From assembly GCA_032718475.1 (NCBI GenBank), contig JAUCBJ010008921.1:1-62680 (forward strand): a stretch of DNA of 62,680 nt, given 5' to 3'. Origin of the DNA: Nemertoderma westbladi. Its lineage: Eukaryota; Animalia; Xenacoelomorpha. The notes below the pieces were generated by a model. That model did no database searches. It was not told where the DNA came from and was given only the letters and a program-made list of their open reading frames with translations. This document shows, one piece after another, positions 22,501 through 39,851 of the stretch (its first letter is position 1; each line of letters begins with the position of its first letter). The translations under genes were made by a program, and so were the position numbers.

Positions 22501-25500
22501 CAGTAGCCGGATACTTTACCAACACTATTCCAGTAGCCGGATACTTTACCAACACTATTCCAGTAGCCGCATACTTTACCAACACTATTCCAGTAGCCGG
22601 ATACTTTACCAACACTATTCCAGTAGCCGGATACTTTACCAACACTATTCCAGTAGCCGGATACTTTACCAACACTATTCCAGTAGCCGCATACTTTACC
22701 AACACTATTCCAGTAGCCGGATACTTTACCAACACTATTCCAGTAGCCGGATACTTTACCAACACTATTCGAGTAGCCGGATACTTTACCAACACTATTC
22801 CAGTAGCCGGATACTTTACCAACACTATTCCAGTAGCTGCATACTTTACCAACACTATTCCAGTAGCCGGATACTTTACCAACACTATTCCAGTAAATGT
22901 CATGTAATTCTTTGTCTTTGACAAACGTCTAAACGAACATCAATTATTAAAATCCACTTATATTAGGTAAATATGTATAAATTAATGATATATTTATTTT
23001 CACTTATTTTGTTGTTTATTTATATATTTTTTTCAGGAATACGAGGTTCTATTCATTATTCATTATTCCACAGAGGACAATAACGCATTAGCTATATATA
23101 ATTTGCCTATCCCAATCCGTACTTACATAGTAACTATAATATTAAAAGTAACGTAACTAAAATGTGTCAACTTACATCTTGGAGGCGCAGAGTTTGCAGG
23201 CCCAACATTTGTCTAATAGAGAGATAATCTTTATAACCGTGGGAATCTGACAGTCTTTGCAAACTTTTTTCCCGCAAACTTTGCATACATCACCTAAAAC
23301 ATGAAACAAATTCAAATATCTCTAAACACAAGAATCAAATTCTTATACATTAAAATATATCAGCATACCGTTCCTGTATTTTACTCTATTAATATACCAC
23401 CGGTGATGCCATAATCAATCATTGATAAAAGTATCTGAGCACTAGAAACCCCGCTCCTCTCACTTGGCAATTACTTGTATGACAGGGAGGATCGCCACAT
23501 AATAATTATATATTATATATTCCATAATTAATCAACGTTTTTCTGTATCGCCTAGAGGCGCAAAAGGCAGGTCTCATCACCACAGGGTCCCAAGTAGGTG
23601 ACCCAGTTAGCGATTATCGCAGCTGCTATGCGCCCAAGGAGCGACCCCCCCTCCCAGATGTTGGCGAAATAGATAACTACTCCGCCAGCGGCCCCAGCCT
23701 GGTTTTGTAACCTTTACGATAAAACTTTCAGTTTAATCAATCTCCAAGAATTATAATAGCTCTTCTGACTTTCCCTCTGACTTCGCTGACATTAAACCGC
23801 CGGTACAATAACTTATGGTAAATATGATATCAGTGGCTCGTTTCGCTCTATTGAGTTGCCATGGATACAACGAAACAAGCCTTCTCACCTCTATTAAATA
23901 TCCAACCGAATTGCGCGAGACATCGGTAACACATTTTCTCTACTACAGGTTCAACACCTACCAGCTGATGTACCGAGGACCGTCGGACCGCCTGGTACTC
24001 TACCTTTAGGCACCTAAAACGATAAAGGAAACCGGTCTGTGGTTATATTTAAGTGACAGAAATAAAAAATGGACCAGTTTTATTCTGATAATTTTCTGAT
24101 ATCACCTTCAGCACATTAATTAATAAATAAAGCAGAAGCGCCCCCTAATAAAGAAGCATAGAAATAGTCAGGTAGACAGAGGTGTCCACCGTGACTTTGG
24201 GTCATCACGCATTTTTATTTGCTTAAACTTTAGTCGGACCTTAGAGTAATCAAAATCCGTCGGGTGCACACTTCGGCACCTTTGGGGAACTTTTTATAAA
24301 GCACTTAACCTAAGTTTCCATAGCAACCGACATACAAGGTTTTATTTTGAGATATCTGCGACCTTGCACCTATTTCCACAGCTCTTGTTAATTATTCTGA
24401 ATAAGATTTCTAGAAGATTAGTTCCCATAGCAACATTATTAATCATAAATTTTGGTCTTTGGGATGTATTTATTAAGATATGCCAACTATTAAACTTTTG
24501 ATTATTTATGTAACTATTTATAAAAGCAAACAATTATTTAAATTATTAATCACATTTAGTCATTCATTTAATTAGATGAGTTAGTTTTCTCCTTTCAAAT
24601 GCAAATTTTGACGTTTATCTTTCCAACGATTGCAGAAAATAGGTACAGTAGATTCAATGTGCCATCATTCTTTACTGCGTACCTATCTGGGTATCTATCC
24701 AAAATATTATCCATTACTGGTATTACGAAAGTTAATCAATCAGCTAGAAGAGTTGTATGTTTATTAAAATAATTATTTAAAAGGAACATTGCTTTAAACA
24801 TTGTATTTATTTTTACACTTTGAAGTAGTGCAGGTGCATATTGTAGTACAAGGTAGAGCGGCTATAGAGCAGCCGCATCGATTGGAAGAACAGGCACTTA
24901 CGGACTTGCAATTACAAGATATAGTTTTAAGGATCGAAATTGGGGCAATGGATGAGACGCCAGGATCCGGTATCACTTTGTCATTGATCGCCATCCAACC
25001 AAACTTGTTAACAGCCATCAGTGGAGGTGCAGGATCATCAGCAGCTCTCCACAAAAGAACTTGCAAACGAGCCCGTTTTACATGTTGTACAGCGGCACTC
25101 TGTGTGGGGGGAAGGTTGAATACTTTAGGGTGTTGCTTCTTTGTAGTGAATAGCCTATGTCGAAGTTCATTCAGAGTATCCGATATGCCACCACCATAGA
25201 GGTGTATAATGAACGAGAGGCCTATTTGTAGCCATTCTTCTTCTGTAACATTTGGATCACAGAAAATCTGCAGGGATTCGTGCAACGTACACATCAATTT
25301 GATGCGTTCTTTTTTCCCTTCCCATATGGATATGATACTGTATCGCAACCAGATAAAGCGTGTAAAGAAAGGAGACCAGCACACTGATTTCCGAGTTGGA
25401 TAGCAGTGCTGTTGATATTTATGATTTTTCCATTAAATCTACGTATGGAGAGTTGAACAGTTGGTTGATATAGCCAGAAGAAGAATACTGCTAGTACGAA

Positions 25501-28500
25501 AATGTCTGTATCTTCTGTTGTTATTTGTATATGTCTGATGTTGTCATAATCAGATAACTTTAACATGTAACTAATAATAGTAACATTAGCTTCTTCATGC
25601 TCGAATATATTATTAGAGTCGCCAACAAGGTGTAATGATTTATGTGTTGTATAATTACACATTTGTTTATTGTTCACAGACTTCATAATAGTGTCTCTGG
25701 AAGGTAGAATTGTTTCAAGTGATAGTTCATATTGGTGATAACTGTTGGATTTGTGACGGGATCCAGGAGGGATCCCGATTTATCCGATGTGGTATTTAGT
25801 CCACGCGTCCCCGCCGTGTATAAGAGTGAAATAAAGATAACTGAGTTCTGAAGTTCGGTGTATAATAATAGGTTATAGGATATAGATATATTGTGAATTA
25901 TACGGTAGGCGGGATACGGTAACTAAAGTCCCGTGATCCCCTAACTAAACTAATTGGCTGTACCCTACGCTAGCACTGCTGCACTGAGATAACTGAATCA
26001 CTGATTAATAGGTTATTGGTTATATTGCACGGTGGCCTTACTGCTACTCAATCGATGCCATTCCCCCCTCTGATTGGTTAATACCCTTGTTGGCGCCCCG
26101 TGGAGTATTCCCGTTCACTCCACCTGTTCTCTCTGGGTTAGGGGTTTGGCCCCTGACCCTCTATTGTGTGCTTCCTTCCCACTCTTATTGGGATGGCACG
26201 AGTTGGTTAATTGCCCAATCTCGTGGCTCCCAATATTGCTTATCGGCTTACAACTTTATGGGGTGTTGGCGGGATTGAATAAGCTAACACTCCCCCCCAT
26301 GCTATCTTCCCGGTAAGAAGATAGCATCAACCAAAAAAAGTGCGTTACAATCCCGCTGGATCCCGATCTAGTATCGGGTGTGGGGTGGAATTCTTTTCTC
26401 TAGGAGCCGGCTTTCCAGGCCGCCCCCTATGGGTATGATAACGCTACCCTGTGTGCCTGGCGTCTCATGTCGGGCCGATCGCGCTCACCTCTTCACGCGA
26501 TTTTTGTTTCCCCAACATTTTCGCCCTATCTCACCTTCACTCTCACCCTAACTCTCTCATACCCCCGGACCTCCTCGTCCCTCACTCAGCCTCTTATTCT
26601 CCCCCCCCCCCACACTAGAATTGCGTTCGCACTCTCTCCGCACTTCGCACTCTTATTCCGATTCTCAACTCCACTTTGACTGTTTTATCTCTCCTGACGA
26701 ACCTCCCCCCCCTCTCGTGCCGTCGCACTCAAGAAGCGTGAAATTGTCAGTTGTCTCGTCCATAGTGCCATAGTCAATTGTCCCCCAGTCCCAGTAGCTA
26801 ATTGAGAAAGGTTGTATGACTATAGTACTTACTCCAAACGTATGTATTTTACTGCTAATCACTACGTACGTACATACAAATTGCACTTATATAGTTGTTT
26901 GCATTAATTAAATTTATACTTAATAGTTCGTACGTTACATGCGGCGCCTTCCAGGCGCACCACTTCCCAGTCTCAGTCTCATTCCCTCGTCTCCGGGAAC
27001 TTATCTGTTCCTCCTCACGTCCTCTTCCCTGGCCCGTTTCTTGGTTATCATCGCTCCTCTGGCATCATCCGCTTTCTGTTTCCGGACCTTCGCTGCCACT
27101 TCCTTGCTGATCCCGGTCGTCGGCTCCTTGGGCGCTGGTGTTATTAAAGCCCGATACCGCTTCGCCGGTGGCCCCTCAGAATGGCCTGGTTGTCTCCCTC
27201 GTGTGGCGTCCCATAGGATCATTTTCATTGCCTTTGGTACGTGTTCCGCCAAGAAATCCCTAAACTCCCTCCGGTTCTCTGGTGTCCACCTGTCCAGGTA
27301 CCGTTGCGTGTTCATAACTCCGGCGAACGATGCCGCCGTAGCTACCTCTTGATAGGTAAACGGTAACCTTCGCTTTATGATTTCCATGTGGGTCTCCTGG
27401 TTTATGAGGAAGAAACCCCACTTGAACTCTTGGGCCTTCATGCGCTGGCGCATCATGGCCCCGACGTCGGCCCACTCCTCGAACCTCGTGAACTTCTCCT
27501 CGTCGCTCATCCAGTCACACTCGCGTCCGTAGTGCCCCCGAAAGTGGCACTTTGGACATCGGTTATGCAACCGTGGACACGCCCCCATCCTGTGACTTGG
27601 TTCTCTACAGTAGAGACAAAAGGTTCCCCGTTGGAACCGGTATAGGCAGCTGCTTTCCTGATGGGTCTGTCTCCCACAGTAGTCGCAGCCGAGTACCAAT
27701 GTCTCCCGTCCCACCTCGTCCTTCGTCCCAAGCGATCTCCGCGGTCTATGGAGTCGCTGGTAGGCAAACTTCTCCACGTTGCTCTCCCTGTTTACGTCGA
27801 TCTCTCCGCCCCTCTCGGGCATCGTCTCCCCGAATACTATCCGTGGTGCCGTCCCCGGTTGCTCGCCCAACCTGATGGTGCTCCCCGCGAAATCCATCGC
27901 CGGCCCCTCGTGCACCCAGGTCCGCTTGCCGGATCTGTTCCAGAAGGCCCTCGCCCCACTGGCCGTCACCACCCTTCCGCCAACCCAGTCCGTGTCCGAG
28001 TGGCCTATCCTTTCGATGGGCGGCATCTCTCCGAACTCGTCGCCGTCGTCTTCCTCTTCTGGTAGTGTTTCCAACCCCGGTATCCCGATGGATCCACTAT
28101 GTCCCTTCCCGCCTTGGCTCTCGCCCGTAGCTCTCCATCCCTCTAGCTCCCTTAACTTCCTTGGCGGTTGGTCGCCCTCGGCGCCCGCTGGTATGGGCAT
28201 CGCGTGCAACCCCGACGTCGACTGTTTCGGCGTTCCCACCGTCCATCCCAATTCTCGCCCTAGAGACTCCCCCGAACTCCCCGACGAAGTCCAATGAAGT
28301 TCGTCTAGGCCCGCCTGTTCCTCGAAGCCATAACTCTGTGTCCTGGCCTCCTCTTCCCTCTCCTCTGCCTCTATCCTCTCCCGTCTAGCGACTTCTTCCA
28401 GTCGCTTTGCTTCCCGTCTATCCATCTCTAGCTGCTCCCATCTCTGATACGGTGTATCTGTCTCCCCGTCTACCAGATGTCGGCTGTTGTAGTACACCGA

Positions 28501-31500
28501 CTCGCCCTTCAGCCCCGGGTGGTCTACCAGACCGTCAAAGGCCGTCTTAAAGGCTCTCCTGTAGCTTAGGGGTGATCCCGATAACAGAAATGCCCCTGGT
28601 TCCCTTTCGATAACTACGGTCATGAATAAGTTAAGCAAACTTATCATCATCCAGTCCTCCTGCAGGATATATCGCTTCTGATATACCTTTATCGCTCCTC
28701 TGCGAAACTGATATACCTCCTGCTTTCCCGGTCTCGCTCCCCACTTCAGCGAGTTCGCTAGTTCTGCTCCGTATTCTTCCCTAAACTTCCCCCAATCCAT
28801 TGGTTTGTGGCATACGAGCCCCAATAATTGGCCCATCGCCACCGCCCCGCATTGGCCTGAGTTCTCGACCACCCCCAATCCATGCGGTGCCGTCATAGCC
28901 ATAAAGACTTTCTGCATATCCAGGAGGTTGGTGGCGTCCGGACCGATGATCCTCTCCGCGTCCTCGCGAATCGCCGATCCCACTTTCGTCGTCGACTTCT
29001 CTCTTACTAAGACTTGTACCGCTTTCGGCAGTCGGTCTAATTTCGGCCCGTCCTTCTTCCCATACGTCCCTAGGTCGAATAAGAAGATGTCCCCATTCGG
29101 CGCGGCCAAATGTAGGAGTATGGTCCTGGCCGACCCTGCCGTTCCTCGTCTTGAACCCGCTTCGTCCTCCACGGTTCCCTCGTCATCTAGGATCATATAT
29201 CCTCCTCTGTTGACGGACTCTATGAATCTTTTCCAGTCCTTCCTCGGCGATTCCCTCGGATACTTCGGAATCCCGAACTTCGCTTCGTCCCCTTTCACCA
29301 CGTAGTGGAAGTGTTGGAAGATCGCGTTGTCCAGCGACGGCGTCCCGTAGGTCCCGACCAACCGCTGTTCGTGCGCCTCCTGGAAGTGATCCTGCAGCGC
29401 TCGTGCCGCGTGACCCCTCTCCAACCTCTCGTAGTATCCTCTCGTCTTCTCCTCCGGGTGTCTTTCGGTGAAATCCACCAATATTTCTTTTCCTCCTGAC
29501 TCCGCCTTTCTCTTCCTGATCAGCTTACTCGCCATTCCGAACACTACACTCGCTCACCTGTAGGGTGGTGCCTTACCAAGGCGCAATACAGATGAGTGAT
29601 GTATTAAGATGTTTCGTACAGTTCGATAATGGCCTACTTTTCTACTTAACTGCGCCTTTCAAGCTTAATTTAATCTAATTAATTTCGGAGCTAGTAAATC
29701 AGCCTAATTTACAATTTCCGTCCGTTACTTTTATTATGTTCTAGAACGACTTTCCTTGTGTTACCACTATTTTTCGATTTTTTTTTAGCCCTATTCTATT
29801 TATTTATTTATTTTGCTTTGATTCTACTGTCCTACTACTTACTACTGCCTATGGATTTATTCTATTCTCTCTCTGATCCATATTCTGGCCTACTCAGTGG
29901 GCCTATGCAGTACAGCAGTATGCGTCGTGTGGCCACACGATTTATCCAGCTGCACTCATATGCCCCCCTCTCTCTACTAACTCTACTTACTGCTAACTAA
30001 TATCTATATCCTATTTACCCCTTTTACCTCTTACTCTCTCTCTCTAACTAATGGTACTACGTACCCTCTAACTCTAACTCTGACTAGGTACCACGTACCT
30101 ACTAACTCTAACTCTAACTAGGTACTACGTACCTACTAACTCTAACTAACTATTGGTACTACGTACCCTCTAACTCTAACTCTAACTAGGTACTACGTAC
30201 CTACTAACTCTCTAACTATCGGTACTACGTACCCTCTAACTCTAACTCTAACTAGGTACTACGTACCTACTAACTCTCTAACTATCGGTACTACGTACCC
30301 TCTAACTCTAACTCTAACTAGGTACTACGTACCTACTAACTCTCTAACTATCGGTACTACGTACCCTCTAACTCTAACTCTAACTAGGTACTACGTACCT
30401 ACTAACTCTCTAACTATCGGTACTACGTACCCTCTAACTCTAACTCTAACTAGGTACTACGTACCTACTAACTCTCTAACTATCGGTACTACGTACCCTC
30501 TAGCTCTAACTAACTATTGGTACTACGTACCCTCTAACTCTAACTCTAACTAGGTACTACGTACCTACTAACTCTCTAACTATCGGTACTACGTACCCTC
30601 TAACTCTAACTCTAACTAGGTACTACGTACCTACTAACTCTCTAACTATTGGTACTACGTACCCTCTAACTCAAACTCTAACTAGGTACTACGTACCTAC
30701 TAACTCTCTAACTATCGGTACTACGTACCCTCTAGCTCTAACTAACTATTGGTACTACGTACCCTCTAACTCTAACTCTAACTAGGTACTACGTACCTAC
30801 TAACTCTCTAACTATCGGTACTACGTACCCTCTAACTCTAACTCTAACTAGGTACTACGTACCTACTAACTCTCTAACTATCGGTACTACATACCCTCTA
30901 ACTCTAACTAACTATTGGTACTACGTACCTACTAACTCTCTAACTCTAGGTACTACGTACCCTCTAACTATTGGTACTACGTACCTACTAACTCTCTAAC
31001 TCTAGGTACTACGTACCTTCTAACTCTAACTTTAGGCACTACGTACCTACTAACTAACTAACTAATTCTAACTAACTAACTCTAGGTACTACGTACCTAC
31101 TAACTAACTAACTAACTCTTATTTTTTATTTTATTTTTATTTTATTTGTGTGGGAAGGGCGTCTCGCCCTCAATCCCACCCCCCTCAGTCCAAAGCTTGG
31201 ACGACTAAACTCCACTCTAACTCCAATTTAAGGTGCCCCTTCTAGTAGACAGGTAACACCTCTGCCCGCACCTTTTATGGATCTAACTCTTCCATCCCAG
31301 TCCAACCTGTTGGACAACTCAGCGACCCAAGGGGTGATTCCTCCAGCAGGCAACTCTCCCACTGCCCCCCTATAGGTTCTCTAATTCTTCGCTCCGCTCT
31401 CCTTGTTAATTCGATAGGTGGTCTTTTCTCCTGTTTTTGGAAATGCTGTCTTCTATTTATGTTTCTGATCTCGTGGTCGTCCCTTGGCGGCAAAGTGCCA

Positions 31501-34500
31501 CCCTTCAACGTGTCACCCGGCGGTATAATGCCGCCCCTGTTCTTCTCCTTAATCTTAGATGCCACCTCTGCTGGCCTCCCCCTTAATATGTGTGCTGGCA
31601 TTAAAGGCTTCAACGACCCCCGTTCGTCCTTCGGTATACACGATGCCTGCCCATGTAATGCCCCCTCGCACTCTGTCAGTTCCGCGTGCGTACGCAGCAC
31701 GCCTCCTACTCTCCCGCCTCCTTTGTCCACCATATGTTTATTCATGGGCTTCTCTGCCCCTGGTCTGGTCGTCTCACATCTTCTCCCTTTCCATCTTGTA
31801 TTCTTACTCGGCTTCCCCCTTGTCGGTATGCCTCTCAACCGGACCGGCGTCTCTTCCGGGCGCTCCTCTGGACACTCCACCGGGCACTTCTCCGGTTTGT
31901 CCTCCCGACACTCCACCGTCCGCTCCTCCCCATCTCCATACCGATACTTGCTGGGACCCTTATTCCAACCCATCGTCTCTAGATCTCCTGCATCCATACC
32001 ATTCTCCTCCGCCCACTCTCTTGGTGTTGCTTCTACTTTTAGCTGTCTACCACTATTGCCCATCTCTGGCCTCTCCTCTATCTCGTCAGTTCCTGGCACC
32101 ATGCATCCTGAACTCTCGGACACATGGAATGGTATATTACTCTTAATTGGACCACTCAGCATCCACCCGAATGGTGTTAATATAGCCACCGGGTCACTCT
32201 GCTTGTCTTCGCCGAAGACCGTTTTCATTCTTTCGTGGGCCGTCGGGCAGTCCATTCCTACTATGATGGATACCTTCCTAACGTCCACGTCTGGGATCGA
32301 GAAGTCAATGTCGTCCAGGAATTTGTATTGCTCGACCTCGATGTTGGTCGGCCGCCTGGCATTGATGTTAATTGACTCTATTACTTGGATGGGGTCGATG
32401 GTTGCCCCATAATCGCATCCTGGTGCTACTGCTGCAATTGCGCACCGTCCTGTCCTCATCTCTAGGATCTCATCTTTGCTAGAGATGGTTGTTACCGACA
32501 TCCTGCTTGGCCTTGTTCTCAATCCTATTTCTTCGGCTACCCATTCCTCTACTAATGTGAAGGCAGCTCCACTATCAACCAGCATTAGTGTTGTTACTGA
32601 TCGATTGCCTTCCCCGATCACTCGTACTGGTACTACTCCAAGTAGCACTGTTCCTCTCTTCTTCGCCCCTATTGTGCTCGTTGCCATCGTCTGGCCTCTC
32701 CTTTGGCCAAACTTGACTGGCTTCTCTTGGCATTCCCTGGCCTTGTGTCCACTCTTCACACATCGCGAGCAGATTTTATTGCTCGACACGTAATCTATCT
32801 GGTCTTGCCTCGGTAGCGCCTGCCAGTACCTGCAATTCATGGTTTTGTGAAGCGCATTTGCGTGTAACTGGCATTTGCTCTTTGGGTCGTAGCCCTCTTT
32901 ATACAATGCATTGCGTATCGCAGTTATATTCGTACCAAAGTCCCTACTATTCTTATTGACTGGGTTTGGCCTACTGGACGTACTGGGGTTATGTTTATTC
33001 ATGTTGTTATTGTTCCCCTGTCCGTCCCTTGATGTTGTCTTATCTTCGTTTGTCTGTGGACTTGCAGTCCCCTGCGTCGCTGCATATGGCAATGATTGCC
33101 TGAGTCTCGGTAACGCGTTCGATGTGTTGTGCTCTGGTTTTGGTCTATGGTAGTCTGTCTTTGGTCCCTTTCCCAGGCTGTCTTCACTATAGACTGGGTC
33201 CGTTATTAGTTCGGCCTCGTAATTTAAGAAGTTTGACATTTCTTCTAAACCCGGTTCTGCACCCTTCTTGTCTCGAGTGGAGAAAGCGATCTTCCTCCAT
33301 TTGTTGCGCAGCCAGCTCGGTAGTGCCTGCGCTATCGTGGTGATGTTATTGGACGCGTTGAGTTCGTATGGCGCGTCTAGCGTCTTCAGCACGATCAGCG
33401 CCTTCTCGACTTTGTTAGCAAACGTCTTAATGCTAACGGGATTATCCTGTAGGCCACCCGATGTTATGCCTCTCAGCGTTTGCCTGATGATCTTGGCCGG
33501 GTGCCCGTATTCCCTATCCAGTGCCCGCCATGCTGTCGTGAAGCCGCCCTCTATTCCCTGATATTGCCTCACGATGTCGTATGCTGGGCCTCCCGTGTAC
33601 ACTTGTAGATACTTTAGGCACTCCGCCTGCGTCAAGTTTTTTGTTAGTATTTCGTTACTATACATTCGCCGAAACTGTAAGTATTCTTCCGGCCTGCTCC
33701 CATCGAATTTGAACGGTTCCACGGGTGGTAATTCGATCCTCGTTTTCAACGCATCGATCAACGTGGCCATCCCCATTGCCTGCGCTTCTAATGGATTCGA
33801 CGGGTGCTGTATAGTTTCCCCTGTCTGGTGCGGTTCGTCCGTCCTATTTCTTGATCTTCTCTGACTCAGATATGTCATCGGGGGTAGCGGCCCCCTCCAT
33901 ATGTCTGTATCACACGACCTGTTTTCATCTAGGGGTCTCGTTGTTCTTGCTACCATCGGGGTGTATTGTTGATATTGTGATGGGGGAATGTCACCCTGTC
34001 CCCCCCCCACCGGTATGTCTGGTACTGGGGTTGATGTTAATATGTTGGGGCCCATGCACCTATCCGCAATAATTCCCCCTTCCCCTGGGTATATGTTATG
34101 TCCCTGCATGCTGTAGTCATACTGCTGTGCTGGTACCGGTATAGGCCTATCAGCTTCTGGCCTACTCGCCGGTATGTATTCCGCGACTTCCGGGTTTAAT
34201 CCCGTTGTCCGCGCTATCCTATCGCCTACATTGCCTCTCTCAGTATGGCCTACGGTATGTGCAGTAAGACCTACAGTATGCCCTACAGTCTGCATGTGTT
34301 GCTCGGGATCGAAGTTTATTCTTCTCGAATAATCCTCCCCGCGGTTACCGTATTCTCGATCGGTAAGTATATTCCGTCGGAAAGTTTCTCTTCGACCCCC
34401 CTCTCCACTGTTTTCATCTTCGTACCGGTACATCGCGTACCCCTCTCTCGGCGTGTAATGCGTCTCACCGGATCGCATCCCTCCGGGGCGACGGCAATCT

Positions 34501-37500
34501 CCCGGAGTCCGACCCCACTGACTCTCCGTTCTCATCTCGACTACCGACGGCTCGCTGTCTGTCCTCGCTCTTCTATCTTTTGCGGCGATACTTCTACTAC
34601 TCTCTTCCTCTCTTCTCCTATCAGTGGAATATTCCCGCTCACGAGATCTCTCGTCGACCTCCCGGTTAAACCCCACTGTTCTTCTTTCCTCCTCTGATCG
34701 GGCTCGACGCTCCGTCTGCCCTCCCGCGACGTCAACCTGTCTTTCTCTGCTCGATCGCACGTCGCTGGGGATACTCGCAATCCCCCTATTACTTTCCGTC
34801 GCCGGTTGTTGCGGTTTACCTTGTTCGGCCCTCGCATTGTCCGCTGACGGCTGTGGGACACTCTCTGCCCCCCCCCTCTCGCCGCTAACTTTCTGTTGTG
34901 GGGTGCTCGTAGCCCCCCCCCACTCGCTACATCTAACTTCGCTACCTCTCTCCCCGCTATTATATACCTCTCTAGTCGACACATCGACCCTACTGCGGTC
35001 GGGTCCATTCACCCCCGCCTCTCCCTCTGCTATTGCGTGGCCTACCAGGCCCTCTACTCCCTGCCTACCAACTACGTGGCCTACCAGGCCCTCTGCTCCC
35101 TGTCTACTAACTACGTGGCCTACCAGGCCCTCTGCTCCCTGTCTACTAACTACGTGGCCTACCAGGCCCTCTGCTCCCTGGTTACGTAGGCCCGACGTGT
35201 TTACATTAATAGCACCCATATTGGAAACGGAATTAATTCGCTCATTTGAAACAAAATCATTTGTATTATTCTGCGCGACTACGTTATCTGAATTATTTTG
35301 TAAATTCGGGCTAAGATCATTATTTGAATTATTCGAATTATTCTGTGTAATTGCGTTATTTAAGTTATTTTGTAGGTCCGAATTCGAGTTATTATTTTGA
35401 TTATTTGAACTATTTTGCGTAACTACATCAATATTAGGATTATTTTCTACATTAACACTGGGATTGTTCTGATTTAAATTTAAATTACTACCACTAGGCA
35501 AAGTATTTCCTGTAATAAAGGTTTGATTAGCGTTATCCCATACGGTACTATTAATATCAACAACGTCTACTGTACCATTATTATTATTACCCCCCCCCGC
35601 CCGTACGGTTACACCAGTTTTGGGTCTGTCGTGCGGTCCCTGTCAGTGGGGTGTTAATGAACGTGTCTACGGCTCCTGGCTCCTCAAAAATACTCGAGCC
35701 GGCCCCGCTTTCAGACGGCAACACTCAGACCAATTCCAGCTCGTGCGCCCGTCTAATCTTATTTTTTGCCGATACACCTTGGCGTTTCTCTAATTCCCTT
35801 AACTCTCGCTCAGCCTTTGCCCCTCTCTCCTCACTCTCCTGGCTGTCCCGTCTGGCCGACTCTACTACACTCCTAGCATTCTCCCTTCGTCTCGCCTCAC
35901 GTTCTTTGCGTTCCTTTTCCTTTCTTGCCTCATATTCCTTGCGTTCCTTTTCCCTTCTCGCCTCACGTTCCTTGCGTTCCTCGTCCTCCCTTGCCTCACA
36001 CTCTCTGCGTTCCCTTTCCTCCCTAGCCTCACGCTCTCTACACTCCTTTTCCTCTATTTCGTCACTCTCCCTAAGGCTCCTCAAAGCCCTTTCGACCCTC
36101 TCACCGTTCTCTTTAATCAATGCCGCTTCCCTCGCTAACCGCGCTCTCCCCTCCTCTAGCCGTTCCTCCATTTCCTTCTGACCTTGCTCTGCCACGTCGA
36201 GGCGGTATGCGGCACCTATCTCTCTCACCACTCTTTCTTTCGCGGAGGATGTAACAGACTTATCGGTTACGACGGACTTCCCCCGCTTTCCCGACCTACT
36301 AACTTTCCCCGGCCTCCCGGAGCTTTCTCCGACCGACGAGGCCGAATCCTCGGGGTTAACCTCGGATTCGCCCCCTTCGAGTCCCCTCCAACCCACTGGT
36401 TTTACTCCCCGGGCATCGACCAAGTATGGCCCTATGTACACTGGCGCTACACTAGGTTCCATACTCCCACACTCCCATAGTTCAAACAGTTCGCCGGCTA
36501 TCCTTTCTGCTCTCTCCCCGGCCAGTTCTCTCTGCCCAAAACGTATTAGGTAATTTAAGTGTCTATCCGACTCACCTAGTCGCTTTCTCAGTCTCACCTC
36601 GTCTACCTTCGCCCCTTCCTTCTTGGCGTCGCTTATCAGCTTCCGGGTCGCGTTGTAGGCCCGTCGAAGTCGCTCAGAAACCCCGACGTCCTCGTCGCCG
36701 ACCTCTCCTCCGTCCCTCCGGGTTCGACGTCGTACCGGCGGCTCCACCGTCGCCGTTCTGGTGGGCTGTCCGTCGCCCTCGGCCTGTAGCTGGCCGGCGA
36801 CATCGGTACCGATCTCTCCTCCGTCTCTTCGTGTCCGACGTCGCACCGTCGGCCCCACCGTCGCCGTTTCGGTGGGCCGCTCGTCGCCCTCGGCCGGTAG
36901 CTGGCCGGCGACATCAGCGCGCCGTTCTCCGTCCCGTGTCGACTCATCTCCCTCTCCCTCCGTCTCGCTCTCTCTCTCTCTTGGCTCGACTTCGGGTTCC
37001 AGGCCCTCCTCGTCCTGTGCTTCCGGTTCGCCCGTTATCGATGGCTCCGGCGTCGTGGGCCTGTATCGTTTGGTCGCGGCCTCGCGGATCGTTAGGTCTT
37101 CGTCCGGGGTCCGCGTCGGTGTCTCGCCCGATTCACTCATCTCGTTTGTGGCTGATGATTCGGCTAGCTAGGTTGCAGTTCTTAGAGTTTAACTAGGGCG
37201 GCAGCTCGGTTTAGTTACTGTGACGGGATCCAGGAGGGATCCCGATTTATCCGATGTGGTATTTAGTCCACGCGTCCCCGCCGTGTATAAGAGTGAAATA
37301 AAGATAACTGAGTTCTGAAGTTCGGTGTATAATAATAGGTTATAGGATATAGATATATTGTGAATTATACGGTAGGCGGGATACGGTAACTAAAGTCCCG
37401 TGATCCCCTAACTAAACTAATTGGCTGTACCCTACGCTAGCACTGCTGCACTGAGATAACTGAATCACTGATTAATAGGTTATTGGTTATATTGCACGGT

Positions 37501-39851
37501 GGCCTTACTGCTACTCAATCGATGCCATTCCCCCCTCTGATTGGTTAATACCCTTGTTGGCGCCCCGTGGAGTATTCCCGTTCACTCCACCTGTTCTCTC
37601 TGGGTTAGGGGTTTGGCCCCTGACCCTCTATTGTGTGCTTCCTTCCCACTCTTATTGGGATGGCACGAGTTGGTTAATTGCCCAATCTCGTGGCTCCCAA
37701 TATTGCTTATCGGCTTACAACTTTATGGGGTGTTGGCGGGATTGAATAAGCTAACAGGATTTATTACGCTTTTCCCTTTCTAAAGATTTAATGCTACCTG
37801 GAAAGTAACGATCAAATATTATATACGTTTCATGATGGTGTTCAGCTACTGTATGTGTATATTTGCTGCAGTAGGCATCACAAAAAGCGGCTACAGATAA
37901 CTTGTTGGTCCAATTAATATTGTATAGCGAAGCATTTCCATCAACTAGTTCCAAATCAACAGGGGGGAGTGGGTTGGCCCCATTTACTGCCAGAGAAACC
38001 ATATCAGATTTCTTTCCGGAACGTAATTCACCATACTCATTGAATAGTGATGGAGGTAATGGCCGCATAGTTCATAGCTAAACAATTCTAACAAATCAAT
38101 ATTGCGTTTCTGTGAGACAATCATATAATAGATATAAGATATAATCTCAATACATAGATATAATACATAGATACATAGATACACTATATAATACATGGAT
38201 ATAATCTCTCCATATCATAGGTCTTGCAACCATGTTTGCCACGTGTGGGTTTCAAATCCATAGTTAAAACTGAGCGTGTTACTATCTGGTAGAAACCATT
38301 TGGGAGAGTTGATTTGAATGCCCTTGCCGACTCCAACTCCAACTGTACGGCATTATCGACATTGACTTCTGGTGGAGCTATACGACCATTCACAATATTG
38401 ATCAACTCATTAGTATTATTAAAGCCAAATGGATCCCTGCACTTTTTTAATGTTCGAAGTATACTGAATCTATCACCGGCATCAAGATGCCGCCGCTTAG
38501 TGCCTTCCTCTTTATGTTAAGGCCGCGTTCACACTTACCGAGTCAAAGTCAAAGTCAAGGTCAAAATAAAATAAATATATCTAGCTAGCAATCATAAATA
38601 ATAATACATTATATAGGCCTAATATAATACATAAGGGGATTCTAGAAAAAATTTAATTTCATGTTTTGTGATTTACATTTTGTCTTTTGACTTTGACTTT
38701 GACTCGGTAGTGTGAACGCGGCCTTAAATCACCTTCAAGATTTTCATCATCCTCCACTAACCCAGAATCAAACATGTTATCCACACCCAAGGCAAACATA
38801 TTGCCTATGTGGTGGGATAACACCCAAATGGTCGACTGTTCTTGGAACAGAGTTTTCCCCTTCAATCCACCAAGTGACTTCCCCTTTCTTATGTTTTTAC
38901 TTTTTGCTTATTCTGGAATATTTTAGAAATTTCAATTTAGCTAAATTCATTTTCAACACAACTAAAACTGCTACCAACCATAAAAAACACTAGCTATGTA
39001 AAATACAAAACAAGTTACGTAATATTATTTTTTGATTTTATGAATAAATCTGCCGCTGTGTGCTACTAGCTATATCAATTTCAATAGATAAGACTAATCA
39101 CCAATAAAGTGTGTGTGTAAACCAAGTTAAATTACGAGGCGGTAGGCAATATATAAACGAAGCGGTTAACGAAACGGCGGTGAACAATAAATAAAACAAA
39201 CGTGCATGGGGGTAGACCTACATACCGTTAAAAGATTTGCAAAATATGGGTAATCAAAGCTTTCATACAGTATCATAGCTAAGTATACAGCAATTACAGT
39301 ATATCCAGATCTAAACATATACAGATATACGTAGTTGTTTATCTCTGTTCTAGAACACTTAATTGAATTACTCCAGTAACAAACGTTTATAATTTAATGT
39401 AATTTTTGGAATAGGTTGACTAATTTGCACTTGTATTTTATGCTGTAAAAAAAATTCCCCAAGGTATCCCAACTGGCACCCGGTGAATATTTACATTATT
39501 ATTATCAGGGAAGACATTGAGAAAATAAAATTGCGTGATGACCCAAGTTCACGGTCCTCCCTTGAGCTCTATTGAGCGTCTACTGGACTAAAAATATGTT
39601 GTTCTACATCTAATTTTCTCATGTAAACATTTCGTATCTAAAACTTACAACCTAAACGTAATTTTATCATGTTTTCGTTTACCAGAACATAAATCAGTTA
39701 TCTATTAAATCTTAAATCCTGCTTATACTAACGCCAAACGTTCAGCCTCCTTTACAAGCAACTCTTCATCTTTCTTAATCACATATTTTAATTGTTCTTT
39801 CTCTTCCTCGGTGAGGGTCCCATCTGTTAGAATCTCATCAATAGGATCCAT
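1348..39851 (-). CDS. Synaptotagmin-like protein (Slp4/Slp5/bitesize-type Rab effector), spliced CDS. Exons: 39733-39851, 23889-24013, 23176-23293, 16847-16959, 16199-16369, 14709-15160, 13527-13764, 11007-11215, 3136-3419, 1957-2091, 1348(or 1405)-1534
   Basis: All ten introns are GT..AG with compatible phases. The joined protein (716 aa if it ends at 1348) has SHD1 (LTEEEKEQLKYVIKKDEELLVKEAERL), a FYVE-like Zn finger, SHD2 (KAQSGEWF), a Ser-rich linker, SLVSVYS and a Slp-type C2A domain. Exact orthologue not determined. Confidence 0.9.
1957..2091 (-). CDS. Slp-like gene, coding exon 10 (C2A core)
   Basis: gtttttcag|G..., YIKVFLLPDTFKSGKRTTKARKGTTNPMFDEIVKY, donor AG|GTAGGG. Confidence 0.92.
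2314..3126. repeat. Minisatellite, 20-bp unit ACTGAGTTAGAATATGTTTC, about 40 copies, intronic
   Basis: Directly visible tandem array. Confidence 0.98.
3136..3419 (-). CDS. Slp-like gene, coding exon 9 (SLVSVYS and start of C2A)
   Basis: ctgtatcag|GAC ... GATCC|GTTAGT; DVQGELLYGLEYNDEKTTILIHIKSCRGL...PDP. Confidence 0.9.
4481..9103. repeat. Tandem array, 51-bp unit GGGGATTGGATAGTTTGATTAGGGGACCCTACATACCTTAACTACACTAAA, about 90 copies, intronic
   Basis: Directly visible; near-identical units with recurring variants. Confidence 0.98.
11007..11215 (-). CDS. Slp-like gene, coding exon 8 (linker)
   Basis: tcccctatcag|CC ... CCT|GTAAGT; phase 1-0; within ORF 10995-11294. Confidence 0.75.
11330..13380 (-). 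mobile_element. Decayed, rearranged non-LTR retrotransposon (RTE-like) RT fragments
   Basis: Minus-strand remnants LRGNQNGFRKRRGTMEPIL, FKAYDSVSR, YGISEEII and TGTRSRGNPAKYLSDL. A second NGFWKNRSTIAQILTLRRL / FKKAFDSIHRGKM piece lies at ~12650-12850. Many stops and frameshifts. Confidence 0.8.
13527..13764 (-). CDS. Slp-like gene, coding exon 7 (linker)
   Basis: ttttattgtag|GGT ... GCAG|GTGAGA; open frame GNEIEDRTNTE...KKTTKKA; phase 0-1. Confidence 0.75.
14709..15160 (-). CDS. Slp-like gene, coding exon 6 (linker)
   Basis: ttttgcag|CT ... ATG|GTAGGG; higher-GC open frame within ORF 14694-15182; phases fit both neighbours. Confidence 0.78.
16199..16369 (-). CDS. Slp-like gene, coding exon 5 (Ser/Pro/Arg-rich linker)
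   Basis: ttctcgcag| ... CAG|GTGAGT; 171 nt, phase 1-1. Reads GIPGTPRSRTPSRTPSPIYSSTGNL..., a different frame from the listed ORF. Confidence 0.78.
16847..16959 (-). CDS. Slp-like gene, coding exon 4 (SHD2, SGEWF)
   Basis: tttccag|A..., KLKAQSGEWFYSKVREKLRSNEIHGSYVIKKSIRRAE, donor G|GTAAGA. Confidence 0.9.
17721..17955. repeat. Three tandem copies of an 82-bp unit, part of a dispersed repeat with a relative at ~16570-16750
   Basis: gagaccataatttcc... starts at 17721, 17803 and 17885. The motifs gaaaatagtgatc, aaattgaccgcaa, aacaccgccact and tttgcggtcattttgcgccatt are shared between 16570-16750 and 17750-18250. Confidence 0.85.
18655..22895. repeat. Tandem array, 30-bp unit CCGGATACTTTACCAACACTATTCCAGTAG, about 140 copies, intronic
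   Basis: Directly visible; 31- and 29-bp variants at 20590-21480 break the frames. Confidence 0.98.
23176..23293 (-). CDS. Slp-like gene, coding exon 3 (Zn finger)
   Basis: gttttag|GT..., DVCKVCGKKVCKDCQ...WACKLCASK, donor AT|GTAAGT. Confidence 0.88.
23889..24013 (-). CDS. Slp-like gene, coding exon 2 (start of Zn finger)
   Basis: gttttag|G..., CLKVEYQAVRRSSVHQLVGVEPVVEKMCYRCLAQFGWIFNRG, donor G|GTGAGA. Not in the supplied ORF track. Confidence 0.85.
24794..25750 (-). pseudogene. Academ protein remnant, C-terminal part (XPG-like H3TH motif and Cys8/CXC finger), frameshifted
   Basis: ORFs 25294-25686 (HEEAN..., EDTDIFVL, HALSGCDTVS) and 24794-25384 (LPPTQSAAVQHVKRARLQVLLW, FGW, CNCKSVSACSSNRCGCSIAALPCTTICTC) overlap in different frames. 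Confidence 0.8.
25752..26289 (-). repeat. 3' LTR (538 bp)
   Basis: Direct repeat of 37219-37756; no mismatch noticed by eye; preceded on the minus strand by the PPT. Confidence 0.97.
26290..26298 (-). other. Polypurine tract (GGGGGGGAG) of the LTR element
   Basis: Abuts the TGTTAG start of the 3' LTR on the minus strand. Confidence 0.85.
27001..29544 (-). CDS. Retroelement accessory ORF: DEDDy-type 3'-5' exonuclease-like domain, acidic linker, three CCHC zinc knuckles (first ATG at 29535)
   Basis: Uninterrupted 847-codon frame. ExoI-like MILDDEG, LLHLAAPNGDIFLFDL, LPKAVQVLVREKSTTKVGSAIREDAERI (ExoII), LLDMQ, LLGLVCHKP and YQKRYILQED (ExoIII-like). Knuckles: CDYCGRQTHQESSC, CLYCREPSHRMGAC, CPKCHFRGHYGREC. 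Confidence 0.8.
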   Translation of the reverse strand: MFGMASKLIRKRKAESGGKEILVDFTERHPEEKTRGYYERLERGHAARALQDHFQEAHEQRLVGTYGTPSLDNAIFQHFHYVVKGDEAKFGIPKYPRESPRKDWKRFIESVNRGGYMILDDEGTVEDEAGSRRGTAGSARTILLHLAAPNGDIFLFDLGTYGKKDGPKLDRLPKAVQVLVREKSTTKVGSAIREDAERIIGPDATNLLDMQKVFMAMTAPHGLGVVENSGQCGAVAMGQLLGLVCHKPMDWGKFREEYGAELANSLKWGARPGKQEVYQFRRGAIKVYQKRYILQEDWMMISLLNLFMTVVIEREPGAFLLSGSPLSYRRAFKTAFDGLVDHPGLKGESVYYNSRHLVDGETDTPYQRWEQLEMDRREAKRLEEVARRERIEAEEREEEARTQSYGFEEQAGLDELHWTSSGSSGESLGRELGWTVGTPKQSTSGLHAMPIPAGAEGDQPPRKLRELEGWRATGESQGGKGHSGSIGIPGLETLPEEEDDGDEFGEMPPIERIGHSDTDWVGGRVVTASGARAFWNRSGKRTWVHEGPAMDFAGSTIRLGEQPGTAPRIVFGETMPERGGEIDVNRESNVEKFAYQRLHRPRRSLGTKDEVGRETLVLGCDYCGRQTHQESSCLYRFQRGTFCLYCREPSHRMGACPRLHNRCPKCHFRGHYGRECDWMSDEEKFTRFEEWADVGAMMRQRMKAQEFKWGFFLINQETHMEIIKRRLPFTYQEVATAASFAGVMNTQRYLDRWTPENRREFRDFLAEHVPKAMKMILWDATRGRQPGHSEGPPAKRYRALITPAPKEPTTGISKEVAAKVRKQKADDARGAMITKKRAREEDVRRNR
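30045..31118. repeat. Tandem array inside the LTR element, ~66-bp composite unit built from GGTACTACGTACC palindromes and CTAACT hexamers
   Basis: The unit ggtactacgtaccctctaactctaactctaactaggtactacgtacctactaactctctaactatc recurs at 30221, 30287, 30353 and onward, with degenerate edges. Confidence 0.95.
31275..35642 (-). CDS. BEL/Pao Gag-protease ORF with internally deleted pol (listed ORF 31275-35501; frame open up to 35642)
   Basis: DUF1759-like Gag (IELPPVEPFKFDGSRPEEYLQF...LKYLQVYTGGPA...AWRALDREYGHP), Cys/His knuckles (CQLHANALHKTMNC, CSRCVKSGHKAREC), aspartic protease LVDSGAAFT and BEL-type AILTPFGWMLSGP. No YxDD RT, RNase H or DDE integrase core seen. Confidence 0.88.
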   Translation of the reverse strand, partial: QGPHDRPKTGVTVRAGGGNNNNGTVDVVDINSTVWDNANQTFITGNTLPSGSNLNLNQNNPSVNVENNPNIDVVTQNSSNNQNNNSNSDLQNNLNNAITQNNSNNSNNDLSPNLQNNSDNVVAQNNTNDFVSNERINSVSNMGAINVNTSGLRNQGAEGLVGHVVSRQGAEGLVGHVVSRQGAEGLVGHVVGRQGVEGLVGHAIAEGEAGVNGPDRSRVDVSTREVYNSGERGSEVRCSEWGGATSTPQQKVSGERGGAESVPQPSADNARAEQGKPQQPATESNRGIASIPSDVRSSRERQVDVAGGQTERRARSEEERRTVGFNREVDERSREREYSTDRRREEESSRSIAAKDRRARTDSEPSVVEMRTESQWGRTPGDCRRPGGMRSGETHYTPREGYAMYRYEDENSGEGGRRETFRRNILTDREYGNRGEDYSRRINFDPEQHMQTVGHTVGLTAHTVGHTERGNVGDRIARTTGLNPEVAEYIPASRPEADRPIPVPAQQYDYSMQGHNIYPGEGGIIADRCMGPNILTSTPVPDIPVGGGQGDIPPSQYQQYTPMVARTTRPLDENRSCDTDIWRGPLPPMTYLSQRRSRNRTDEPHQTGETIQHPSNPLEAQAMGMATLIDALKTRIELPPVEPFKFDGSRPEEYLQFRRMYSNEILTKNLTQAECLKYLQVYTGGPAYDIVRQYQGIEGGFTTAWRALDREYGHPAKIIRQTLRGITSGGLQDNPVSIKTFANKVEKALIVLKTLDAPYELNASNNITTIAQALPSWLRNKWRKIAFSTRDKKGAEPGLEEMSNFLNYEAELITDPVYSEDSLGKGPKTDYHRPKPEHNTSNALPRLRQSLPYAATQGTASPQTNEDKTTSRDGQGNNNNMNKHNPSTSSRPNPVNKNSRDFGTNITAIRNALYKEGYDPKSKCQLHANALHKTMNCRYWQALPRQDQIDYVSSNKICSRCVKSGHKARECQEKPVKFGQRRGQTMATSTIGAKKRGTVLLGVVPVRVIGEGNRSVTTLMLVDSGAAFTLVEEWVAEEIGLRTRPSRMSVTTISSKDEILEMRTGRCAIAAVAPGCDYGATIDPIQVIESININARRPTNIEVEQYKFLDDIDFSIPDVDVRKVSIIVGMDCPTAHERMKTVFGEDKQSDPVAILTPFGWMLSGPIKSNIPFHVSESSGCMVPGTDEIEERPEMGNSGRQLKVEATPREWAEENGMDAGDLETMGWNKGPSKYRYGDGEERTVECREDKPEKCPVECPEERPEETPVRLRGIPTRGKPSKNTRWKGRRCETTRPGAEKPMNKHMVDKGGGRVGGVLRTHAELTECEGALHGQASCIPKDERGSLKPLMPAHILRGRPAEVASKIKEKNRGGIIPPGDTLKGGTLPPRDDHEIRNINRRQHFQKQEKRPPIELTRRAERRIREPIGGQWESCLLEESPLGSLSCPTGWTGMEELDP
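35725..37140 (-). CDS. LTR element ORF1, 471 aa, charged/coiled-coil; probably the N-terminal part of Gag
   Basis: ATG 78 nt after the 5' LTR, a long E/R/K heptad-like tract and an internal 37-aa duplication; ends at TGA 35725-35727. Confidence 0.7.
   Translation of the reverse strand: MSESGETPTRTPDEDLTIREAATKRYRPTTPEPSITGEPEAQDEEGLEPEVEPRERESETEGEGDESTRDGERRADVAGQLPAEGDERPTETATVGPTVRRRTRRDGGEIGTDVAGQLQAEGDGQPTRTATVEPPVRRRTRRDGGEVGDEDVGVSERLRRAYNATRKLISDAKKEGAKVDEVRLRKRLGESDRHLNYLIRFGQRELAGERAERIAGELFELWECGSMEPSVAPVYIGPYLVDARGVKPVGWRGLEGGESEVNPEDSASSVGESSGRPGKVSRSGKRGKSVVTDKSVTSSAKERVVREIGAAYRLDVAEQGQKEMEERLEEGRARLAREAALIKENGERVERALRSLRESDEIEEKECREREAREERERRECEAREDEERKEREARREKERKEYEARKEKERKEREARRRENARSVVESARRDSQESEERGAKAERELRELEKRQGVSAKNKIRRAHELELV
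37219..37756 (-). repeat. 5' LTR (538 bp)
   Basis: Direct repeat of 25752-26289, upstream of the minus-strand ORFs. Confidence 0.97.
37757..38860 (-). pseudogene. Academ protein remnant, upstream part, fragmented
   Basis: LINIVNGRIAPPEVNVDNAV, LFSYEL/PLPPSLFNEYGELRSGKKSD, LVDGNASLY and IIFDRYFPGSIKSLEREKR; continues across the LTR insertion into 25750. Confidence 0.75.
38521..38723. mobile_element. MITE (203 bp) inserted in the Academ remnant
   Basis: TIRs GGCCGCGTTCACACT(T)ACCGAGTCAAAGTCAAAGTCAA at both ends, flanked by TTAA on both sides; superfamily not assigned. Confidence 0.9.
39733..39851 (-). CDS. Slp-like gene, first coding exon (SHD1 Rab-binding helix)
   Basis: Acceptor ttgtgttacag before 39861, ATG at 39851, MDPIDEILTDGTLTEEEKEQLKYVIKKDEELLVKEAERLA, donor GC|GTTAGT (phase 2). 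Confidence 0.85.

Follow-up and report, generated by a model that had tools for sequence, protein, structure and literature searches.

A BEL/Pao retrotransposon lineage with a third gene combining a predicted DEDDy exonuclease domain and three zinc knuckles

A BEL/Pao-type element of 12,005 bp lies on the minus strand of Nemertoderma westbladi contig JAUCBJ010008921.1, within the 62,680-nt stretch of DNA that was analyzed as a whole (hereafter, the window). We conclude that its third open reading frame, ORF3, is almost certainly a conserved third gene of a BEL/Pao lineage, whose product has three zinc knuckles and an exonuclease domain predicted to be of DEDDy type.

Structure and insertion of the element

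An earlier note on this DNA had called a BEL/Pao element here, and the LTRs, target-site duplication and DUF1759 and protease matches agree with that call. The 5' LTR (37756-37219) and the 3' LTR (26289-25752), on the minus strand like all features below unless noted, have the same sequence across 538 bp, with TG...CA ends. They are bordered by a 5-bp target-site duplication, AATCC (upstream copy, 37757..37761; downstream copy, 25747..25751), and a polypurine tract (26290..26300) directly adjoins the 3' LTR, so that the element has the TG...CA repeats, duplication and purine tract of an LTR retrotransposon. The insertion is recent, and an empty site, with 25746 joined to 37757, was found in contigs from two sequencing runs. 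Within the 5' LTR, a TATA-like box at nt 266 and a TCAGT initiator-like motif at nt 294 resemble consensus promoter elements and form a putative promoter. The leader at the expected primer-binding site (37186..37218) starts with GTAAC, not TGG.

In the N. westbladi copy, gag is split into two separate frames. The N-terminal gag-region ORF (35725..37139) is charged and coiled-coil-like, and had no Pfam match. The second, a gag-protease frame of 1455 aa (31275..35642), is of BEL type, with Pfam matches to DUF1759 (E 9e-11; ~33707-33291) and, downstream of a knuckle, to the aspartic protease family Asp_protease_2 (E 2.7e-5; ~32630-32475); a profile of related BEL polyproteins also matched the protease region, at E 8e-19. 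No match to reverse transcriptase (RT), RNase H or integrase was found in the element, in the gag-protease tail or in the whole window, and the copy is therefore a non-autonomous derivative. Rfam and tRNA scans gave no matches. Between gag-protease and ORF3 lies a tandem array of 15 copies of a 66-bp unit (30087..31064, no strand assigned).

Summed contig depth ranged from thousands to >100,000 over the element, compared to 238-281 on the flanks. This depth is not a copy number and says nothing on whether most host copies have pol, but it shows that the host contains many divergent copies of the element.

Features of ORF3

ORF3 occupies an open frame on the minus strand (29553-27001), with its first ATG at 29535, and encodes 844 aa followed by a stop (27001..29535), in good agreement with the intact sense ORF of ~845 aa starting at 29544 in the earlier note. 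None of 2000 dinucleotide shuffles left the frame stop-free. From its N terminus, the protein comprises the predicted DEDDy 3'-5' exonuclease domain (aa ~97-312; 28600..29247), delimited by profile and structure model, then a long helix, a disordered linker, the triple knuckle and a conserved C-terminal domain. The ordered exonuclease motifs and the knuckles were all found where they had been noticed previously. The three CX2CX4HX4C knuckles (27517..27687) span aa 617-630, 640-653 and 660-673 (27687-27646, 27618-27577 and 27558-27517), and their Cys and His residues are invariant or almost so across 31 family proteins. The mostly helical domain that follows (aa ~678-780; 27196..27504) is conserved in the family and belongs to no Pfam family; for aa 600-790, the ESM Atlas returned knuckle leads only, all below 0.9. 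Basic NLS-like ends are present as described before, although they are no family constant, since such C-terminal tails occurred in 39 of 128 family tails.

ORF3 lies between the gag-protease frame and the 3' LTR, the env position assigned to it earlier, and has no env features: no signal peptide, transmembrane anchor or fusion-protein fold was found in it, and its N-terminal domain has a predicted nuclease fold. Its peak 19-residue hydropathy is 1.3 and there is thus no clear transmembrane segment. No glycoprotein was among the 50 viral-library matches listed. The ORF3 product is not an envelope protein.

Predicted exonuclease fold

A Pfam search of the ORF3 protein gave no match, and none of the ORF3 sequences sent to Pfam matched an exonuclease family. 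A family profile built from 24 sequences, however, matched EXD2 at E 4.5e-9, and also WRN (7e-4), Egalitarian (4e-3) and both domains of the TbRND entry 7c45. In the ESM Atlas, ORF3 scored 0.93 against a cluster with DNA_pol_A_exo1 in 34% of its members. While a single-sequence fold was of low confidence (pLDDT 32.8), an AlphaFold model built on the 24 sequences (mean pLDDT 61.8 and pTM 0.44, with most of the exonuclease core and knuckle region at 70-94) matched Nibbler EXO at Z 12.7 (202 residues aligned at rmsd 4.4 and 203 at rmsd 3.6), WRN at Z 12.0, EXD1 at Z 10.7 and RNase D exonucleases, and its top Foldseek match was TbRND (E 2.2e-5). WRN, the proofreading domains of polymerases and other nucleases fall within 1 Z unit of Nibbler. 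The N-terminal domain is thus predicted to adopt an RNase H-like DnaQ fold of DEDDy type, consistent with the WRN/Mut-7/EXD-type domain proposed earlier; of the checks suggested at that time, Pfam remained blank, whereas the AlphaFold and Foldseek comparison pointed to an exonuclease.

Homologues, linkage to pol and selection

Word-based protein searches (with the whole of ORF3, with the exonuclease region among shorter proteins, and with an alignment) recovered no relatives. With phmmer, 57 homologues at E<=1e-3 were found among 1.84 billion representatives, many of them sharing the two-part layout, and the blank in the word searches therefore reflects a sensitivity limit. Cluster look-ups of 20 homologues yielded a single name, 'hypothetical protein'.

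A search by knuckle motif recovered 132 loci, 124 of which were family members; the same motif had 0 matches in viral contigs. Elements with only the exonuclease could not appear in such a search, and the constancy of the knuckle module is therefore partly built in. The expectation that homologues would sit inside LTR elements held true: among the 41 loci with at least 3.5 kb of upstream DNA, a same-strand BEL/Pao pol was found ahead of the gene in 38, the exonuclease domain in 38 and both in 35. BEL/Pao gag-pol families were identified in 29 of the 31 upstream ORFs sent to Pfam, and related loci showed the order gag-PR-RT-RH-IN with the BEL/Pao signatures Peptidase_A17, RVT_1 and DUF5641. In this BEL/Pao lineage ORF3 is a regular third gene and the other members have a complete gag-pol; the N. 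westbladi copy is a derivative that lacks pol. The earlier idea of a nuclease retained while pol was discarded does not hold for the gene itself.

Distances in RT-RH and in ORF3 were strongly correlated (Spearman 0.89, n=24; 0 of 2000 permutations as high), a correlation also expected from shared ancestry alone, and this co-divergence extended down to 28% RT-RH identity. ORF3 has been inherited vertically within a deep BEL/Pao lineage. It is under purifying selection: the proposed dN/dS comparison gave 0.04-0.55 in the 33 computable pairs out of 35 close ones, although these pairs are not independent, and of 16 differences listed for ORF3 between copies within the host (from the best-supported 40 of 1575 differences), 14 were synonymous. 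The env position, and the lack of relatives in single-sequence word searches and in Pfam, might suggest a host gene fragment picked up by a single copy and now in neutral drift, or else an env that went unrecognised. Given a 124-locus family with BEL/Pao pol upstream, dN/dS below 1 in every computable pair, the mostly synonymous host variants, and the hydropathy and viral-library results above, we regard this explanation as very improbable.

Catalytic residues across the family

The catalytic positions of ORF3 are D117 and E119 (ExoI, D-x-E), D192 (ExoII), and Y289 and E293 (ExoIII, where the canonical motif is Y-x3-D). The ExoIII Glu at +4 had been seen before and taken as a sign of doubtful catalysis, and the residue is there. 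Of 81 family domains, 48 have Asp and 20 have Glu in the column of Glu293. All four acidic residues are kept in 42 of 76 complete exonuclease domains, and since 5 of these 42 have the ExoIII Glu, like the N. westbladi copy, it reads, from the family comparison, as a natural variant and not as decay. A literature search for Klenow D501E found no published data.

In the other 34 of the 76 complete domains, at least one catalytic residue is missing. One catalytically dead clade forms a single branch on the RT tree (100/100), in which pol is intact, dN/dS is 0.04-0.26 and the exonuclease domain is under selection. Two further elements (L047 and L059) have the knuckle module and RT, and lack the exonuclease domain. 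These variants bear on a possible DNA-side role, in which strong-stop DNA or the ends of cDNA would be cleared of mismatched or untemplated 3' nucleotides by a WRN- or proofreading-like exonuclease, while the knuckles acted as a chaperone of nucleocapsid type. The profile and fold matches to EXD2, WRN and family-A polymerase exonucleases, the resemblance of the knuckles to nucleocapsid proteins and the tight linkage of ORF3 to pol throughout the lineage are in its favor. With so many domains missing catalytic residues, among them a clade with intact pol and a selected domain, and with two RT-bearing elements lacking the domain, we consider such a role improbable.

Self-priming was also considered as a reason for the exonuclease. 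The first 9 nt of the leader are exactly complementary to LTR nt 363-371 (18 of 5000 shuffles; the pairing was noticed before the test), but the 33-nt LTR-leader duplex was equalled in 47 of 500 shuffles and in 16 of 108 internal windows (fold z -2.3) and is not significant. Tf1/sushi-type self-priming calls for a transcript 5' end that is complementary to the primer-binding site, and the likely start lies ~40-70 nt upstream. TGG-type primer-binding sites were found in 20 of 60 related loci >4 kb, many of which stop short of the 5' LTR. With relatives carrying tRNA-type sites and no significant duplex, self-priming was rejected as the reason for the exonuclease.

Proposed role of ORF3

Because one RT clade lost acidic residues yet remained constrained, and two elements lack the exonuclease domain, nuclease activity is argued not to be the core function; RNA binding is the likely core role, with trimming optional. 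By analogy, our preferred reading, held with somewhat less than even confidence, is that RNA of the element itself is the target of the exonuclease domain and knuckles. As suggested by TbRND, the knuckles together with the C-terminal domain would bind this RNA and so protect, route or package it. In copies with intact acidic residues, the N. westbladi one included (D117/E119/D192/E293), the exonuclease would trim 3' ends of element RNA or, alternatively, of RNA remaining during reverse transcription. In copies that have lost them, the domain could act as an additional RNA-binding surface, as in Egalitarian and EXD1. In TbRND, the knuckles grip single-stranded RNA and present the 3' terminus to the active site (PMC7797062). 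The exonuclease and knuckles are ~300 residues apart in ORF3, compared to a linker of ~28 residues in TbRND, and such coupling is therefore assumed.

The evidence for an own-RNA target also fits a small-RNA target. ORF3 protein might bind, over-trim or sequester piRNA or siRNA precursors, or compete with host Nibbler/Mut-7/EXD1, letting the element escape small-RNA silencing. An old BEL/Pao lineage would then carry a Nibbler-like small-RNA trimmer as a piRNA suppressor, in the form of active enzyme, decoy pseudo-enzyme or knuckle-only binder, kept even by pol-less copies. Nibbler EXO and EXD1 are among the top structural neighbors, sequence identity across the family is very low (<=23% to any relative for the exonuclease domain), which would suit a conflict gene, and a silencing-related role has been considered for rotifer DEDDy ORFs (PMC5408684). 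However, since Nibbler ties in Z score with WRN, proofreading domains and other nucleases, the fold gives no indication of small RNAs as the target, and the selection seen was purifying only (by pairwise dN/dS, not at site level). Moreover, a trans-acting suppressor could presumably be borrowed from autonomous copies, yet the pol-less copy has an intact ORF3. Counter-silencing is thus possible, but in our view unlikely.

A deep BEL/Pao lineage has a third gene, vertically inherited and selected, beyond gag-pol and the occasional env (PMC3118150). Pfam is blind to its exonuclease, which explains how annotation could miss the gene. The active, dead and exonuclease-less variants form a natural series of one accessory protein, making the question of small-RNA suppressor versus RNA/cDNA end processing in animal LTR retrotransposons testable with single recombinant proteins.

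Comparison with known systems

BEL/Pao elements (Belpaoviridae) have gag-pol and occasionally env, and the LTR length and target-site duplication of the N. westbladi element are within their range (PMC3118150). In contrast to BEL/Pao elements with env, the third ORF here encodes a soluble nuclease/knuckle protein, and the N. westbladi copy lacks pol and a TGG-type primer-binding site. In the searched literature we found no report of an exonuclease/knuckle third gene in BEL/Pao, in keeping with the earlier note, which knew of no such fusion in a BEL/Pao element.

Nibbler/Mut-7, EXD1, EXD2, the WRN exonuclease and Egalitarian share the fold predicted for ORF3 (Z 10-12.7); they are host genes with 11-18% identity to it, and no specific donor can be named. 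This fold occurs in active as well as pseudo-enzyme form, EXD1 and Egalitarian being pseudo-enzymes. The pseudo-enzyme state of EXD1 is described in PMC5408684. TbRND (Trypanosoma brucei RNase D; PDB 7c42-7c4c) has, like ORF3, a DEDD exonuclease followed by CCHC knuckles (PMC7797062). It differs in being a cellular enzyme of the mitochondrion, with four knuckles behind a short linker; its identity to ORF3 is 15-18%. The shared architecture is probably convergent.

The bdelloid rotifer families Juno and Vesta are of Ty3/gypsy type. In these LTR retrotransposons and in Terminons, which are Penelope-like elements and not BEL/Pao as here, a DEDDy-type exonuclease gene also lies downstream of pol, in the place of env (PMC5408684, PMC6431247), and the precedent named in the earlier note is confirmed by PMC5408684. 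Roles in 3'-end processing or silencing were proposed for the rotifer ORF3 (PMC5408684, PMC6431247). The BEL/Pao ORF3 is set apart from the rotifer ORFs by published descriptions, not by sequence: the rotifer motif is given as DEED, compared to DEDD, DEDE or dead versions here, and acquisition was called recent, with no departure from neutrality within genomes (PMC5408684, PMC6431247), whereas the family here shows purifying selection and co-divergence with RT. Finally, knuckles were reported only in gag/pol of the rotifer elements, with a Cys-His-Cys motif in Vesta2/5 (PMC5408684, PMC6431247), while in the BEL/Pao lineage a triple knuckle and a conserved C-terminal domain are within ORF3 itself.

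ORF3 is carried by a recent BEL/Pao derivative

ORF3 lies in a minus-strand open frame at 29553-27001 and, from its first ATG at 29535, encodes 844 aa (29535-27001, -). None of 2000 dinucleotide shuffles of the frame was stop-free, in line with an earlier note on this DNA that had described a long uninterrupted ORF; every motif listed there was found in place, as were the three CX2CX4HX4C knuckles (27687-27517, -). A pyrimidine-rich stretch ending in CAG (29570-29550, -), 22 nt upstream of the ATG, is a splice-acceptor candidate that could yield a subgenomic message, and reads as a donor too.

The element is 12,005 bp long. Identical 538-bp LTRs (5' LTR, 37756-37219, -; 3' LTR, 26289-25752, -) bound it, together with a 5-bp duplication and a purine tract, and contigs from two of four sequencing runs contain the empty site, with the flanks joined directly. 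Upstream of ORF3 are a gag region with DUF1759 and an aspartic protease, and then a 66-bp tandem array. An RT-RH query against the whole window gave no match, and matches to a polyprotein profile of ten relatives were confined, in the window element, to the knuckle and protease region. The window copy is a BEL/Pao derivative of recent origin that lacks pol. Its gag is in two reading frames (junction 35590-35730), where contigs of other copies differ from the window.

The element sits in a broken gene whose C-terminus is rich in Cys (24794-25779 and 37757-38300, -; weak CXC/TCR match, E 0.17) and which may resemble the XPG-like/Cys8 gene of Academ-type DNA transposons. Elsewhere in the window are an uninterrupted 278-aa acyltransferase frame (474-1310, +; PF01553, E 7e-16), presumably tafazzin-like, which may be a retrocopy or one large exon, and long minisatellite arrays at 4481-9104 (51-bp unit), 18656-22895 (30 bp), 45275-46889 (63 bp) and 55048-62680 (38 bp).

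ORF3 is a lineage trait behind BEL/Pao pol

The motif H-x4-C-x2-LH-x2-C-x2-C-x2-RGH, present in 45 of 58 family proteins, was used as a DNA pattern and returned at least 120 metagenome loci from 26 of 64 parts scanned (about 300 estimated), with flanks for 80; a genome collection added 12 loci. The family's knuckle profile scored 124 of the 132 motif loci. Upstream sequence of 3.5 kb or more was available for 41 loci; of these, 38 had a same-strand BEL/Pao pol, 38 an exonuclease domain and 35 both, the pol queries being six polyproteins from these same loci, so that BEL/Pao-type pol alone was sought. Pfam recognized BEL/Pao families among upstream ORFs in 29 of 31. Homologues do sit inside LTR elements, one of which (L023) has both LTRs (797 bp, 95%). 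The earlier picture of a BEL/Pao element that had discarded pol holds for the window copy, with its LTRs, DUF1759 and protease and its lack of RT-RH, but not for these relatives. Three loci showed no pol. A long ORF3 takes up most of L005 and L052 and shares 51-56% identity with the L051 ORF3, itself located after a BEL integrase; in the third, L012, a broken copy, pol was sought and none was found.

RT-RH and ORF3 distances were correlated across the 24 loci with both genes (Spearman 0.89; 0 of 2000 permutations as high), RT-RH identity having a minimum of 28% and a median of 40%. This unrooted distance correlation indicates long vertical inheritance of ORF3 with pol, not repeated capture.

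ORF3 frames of L005, L051, L043 and L015 reach 1300-1600 aa, with long N-terminal extensions blank in Pfam. BEL/Pao has been described as metazoan (PMC3118150); six BEL/Pao elements (L123, L124, L127, L128, L130 and L132) were on contigs of two bacterial MAGs (labeled Bacteroidetes and Oxalobacteraceae), and are probably animal DNA binned into MAGs. The L124 polyprotein (3542-9538, -) contains a deoxynucleoside kinase domain upstream of RT (aa 583-778; Pfam dNK, E 6e-46), and the same element has an exonuclease-knuckle ORF3.

The N-terminal domain has a predicted exonuclease fold

Pfam gave no match to the ORF3 protein, and word-based protein searches no relatives. A phmmer search of 1.84 billion representatives gave 57 matches at E<=1e-3, nearly all of them aligned over the knuckles and the domain that comes next. 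Many of these relatives have a length of 600-800 aa and carry a D-x-E...D...Y-x3-D/E domain at the N-terminus. The profile check proposed earlier, blank in Pfam, succeeded with a family profile of 24 of the longer relatives, which matched EXD2 (E 4.5e-9), WRN (7e-4), Egalitarian (4e-3) and both domains of Trypanosoma brucei RNase D (TbRND; entry 7c45).

The AlphaFold model (mean pLDDT 61.8; mostly 70-94 in the exonuclease core and knuckle region) agreed with the nuclease fold expected by the earlier note: it matched Nibbler EXO (Z 12.7, 202-203 aligned, rmsd 3.6-4.4), family-A polymerase (Z 12.6) and WRN (Z 12.0), as well as Rrp6, RNase D, Egalitarian and TbRND (11.0-11.3). The top Foldseek match in the PDB was TbRND, and among viral proteins the top matches were DEDDy exonucleases of giant viruses. 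The predicted exonuclease fold class is well supported, the matches not discriminating a nearest subfamily. An env role is contradicted by the predicted nuclease fold and the lack of a clear transmembrane segment.

Constraint persists in a clade without the full active site

Of 81 distinct exonuclease domains, 5 were without the N-terminal part; among the 76 complete ones the acidic residues read D-E-D-D in 37 and D-E-D-E in 5, and 34 missed at least one. The ExoIII Glu that had cast doubt on catalysis is present, and is shared by four further proteins (P0004, P0005, P0008 and P0009); the window protein grouped with P0004 and P0009 (SH support 94; long branch). In the RT tree, eleven degenerate-site elements fell on a single branch (100/100). 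All 33 computable values among 35 pairs over 55% identity gave dN/dS of 0.04-0.55, and values within the clade that lost catalytic residues were 0.04-0.26, neither set of pairs being independent. These values below 1, together with the 124-locus family, contradict a neutral single-copy fragment. In the host, the number of contigs that fall on the element reaches 33,677, at varied identity, and 14 of 16 ORF3 differences, from the 40 best supported of 1575, were synonymous. ORF3 is a real, lineage-wide gene under selection. No exonuclease domain was detected in the long intact ORF3s of L047 (3341-6529, +) and L059 (6880-9648, +), which have the knuckle module and whose RTs form one long branch.

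ORF3 as a putative RNA-binding accessory protein

What stays constant in the family is the module of knuckles and C-terminal domain, in part because the loci were searched for by the knuckle motif. About half of the members keep the catalytic set; one clade has lost it while staying under constraint, and another is without it. On the simplest reading, ORF3 would encode an accessory protein that binds RNA, with 3'-trimming as an option. TbRND serves as working model: by analogy, the ORF3 knuckles would hold single-stranded RNA and help the exonuclease site to cut it. The element's own RNA is tentatively the likeliest substrate, since a copy without pol would benefit most by retaining proteins whose target is its own transcript, provided that the host family is mostly pol-less. 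Two other roles are less likely: suppression of small RNAs by the ORF3 protein and, less probable still, trimming or proofreading of cDNA ends.

Self-priming was considered because the leader after the 5' LTR (37218-37186, -) had no TGG-type primer-binding site when one was looked for. The first 9 nt of the leader exactly complement a stretch in LTR nt 337-371 (about 37420-37386, -), and a further 13 nt also pair, including two G-U pairs, with an equal spacing of 11 nt; the statistics are mixed. tRNA-type sites occurred in 20 of 60 related loci over 4 kb, presumably for Lys and Arg tRNAs. A tie between ORF3 and self-priming (background in PMC6317226) was rejected, given these sites in relatives and the statistical weakness of the LTR-leader pairing.

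Comparison with known systems

No BEL, Pao or Belpaoviridae element with an exonuclease or DEDDy ORF was found among the papers listed by full-text searches of the open literature; an unannotated or briefly annotated ORF in Repbase, GyDB or subscription journals is possible. A term search gave no occurrence of the word exonuclease in surveys of BEL/Pao or invertebrate LTR elements (PMC3118150, PMC2996953, PMC7998251, PMC8220671, PMC8556966 and PMC6238403). LTR elements with an enzymatic ORF3 are already known; the exonuclease-knuckle architecture was not found reported for BEL/Pao in the literature searched. The suggested rotifer precedent is real: PMC5408684 and PMC6431247 describe DEDDy ORF3s in Juno and Vesta elements and Terminons of bdelloids. 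TbRND shares with ORF3 the combination of an exonuclease, predicted in ORF3, and CCHC knuckles; this combination is termed very unusual in PMC7797062, where the knuckles bind single-stranded RNA and aid cleavage by the DEDD site.
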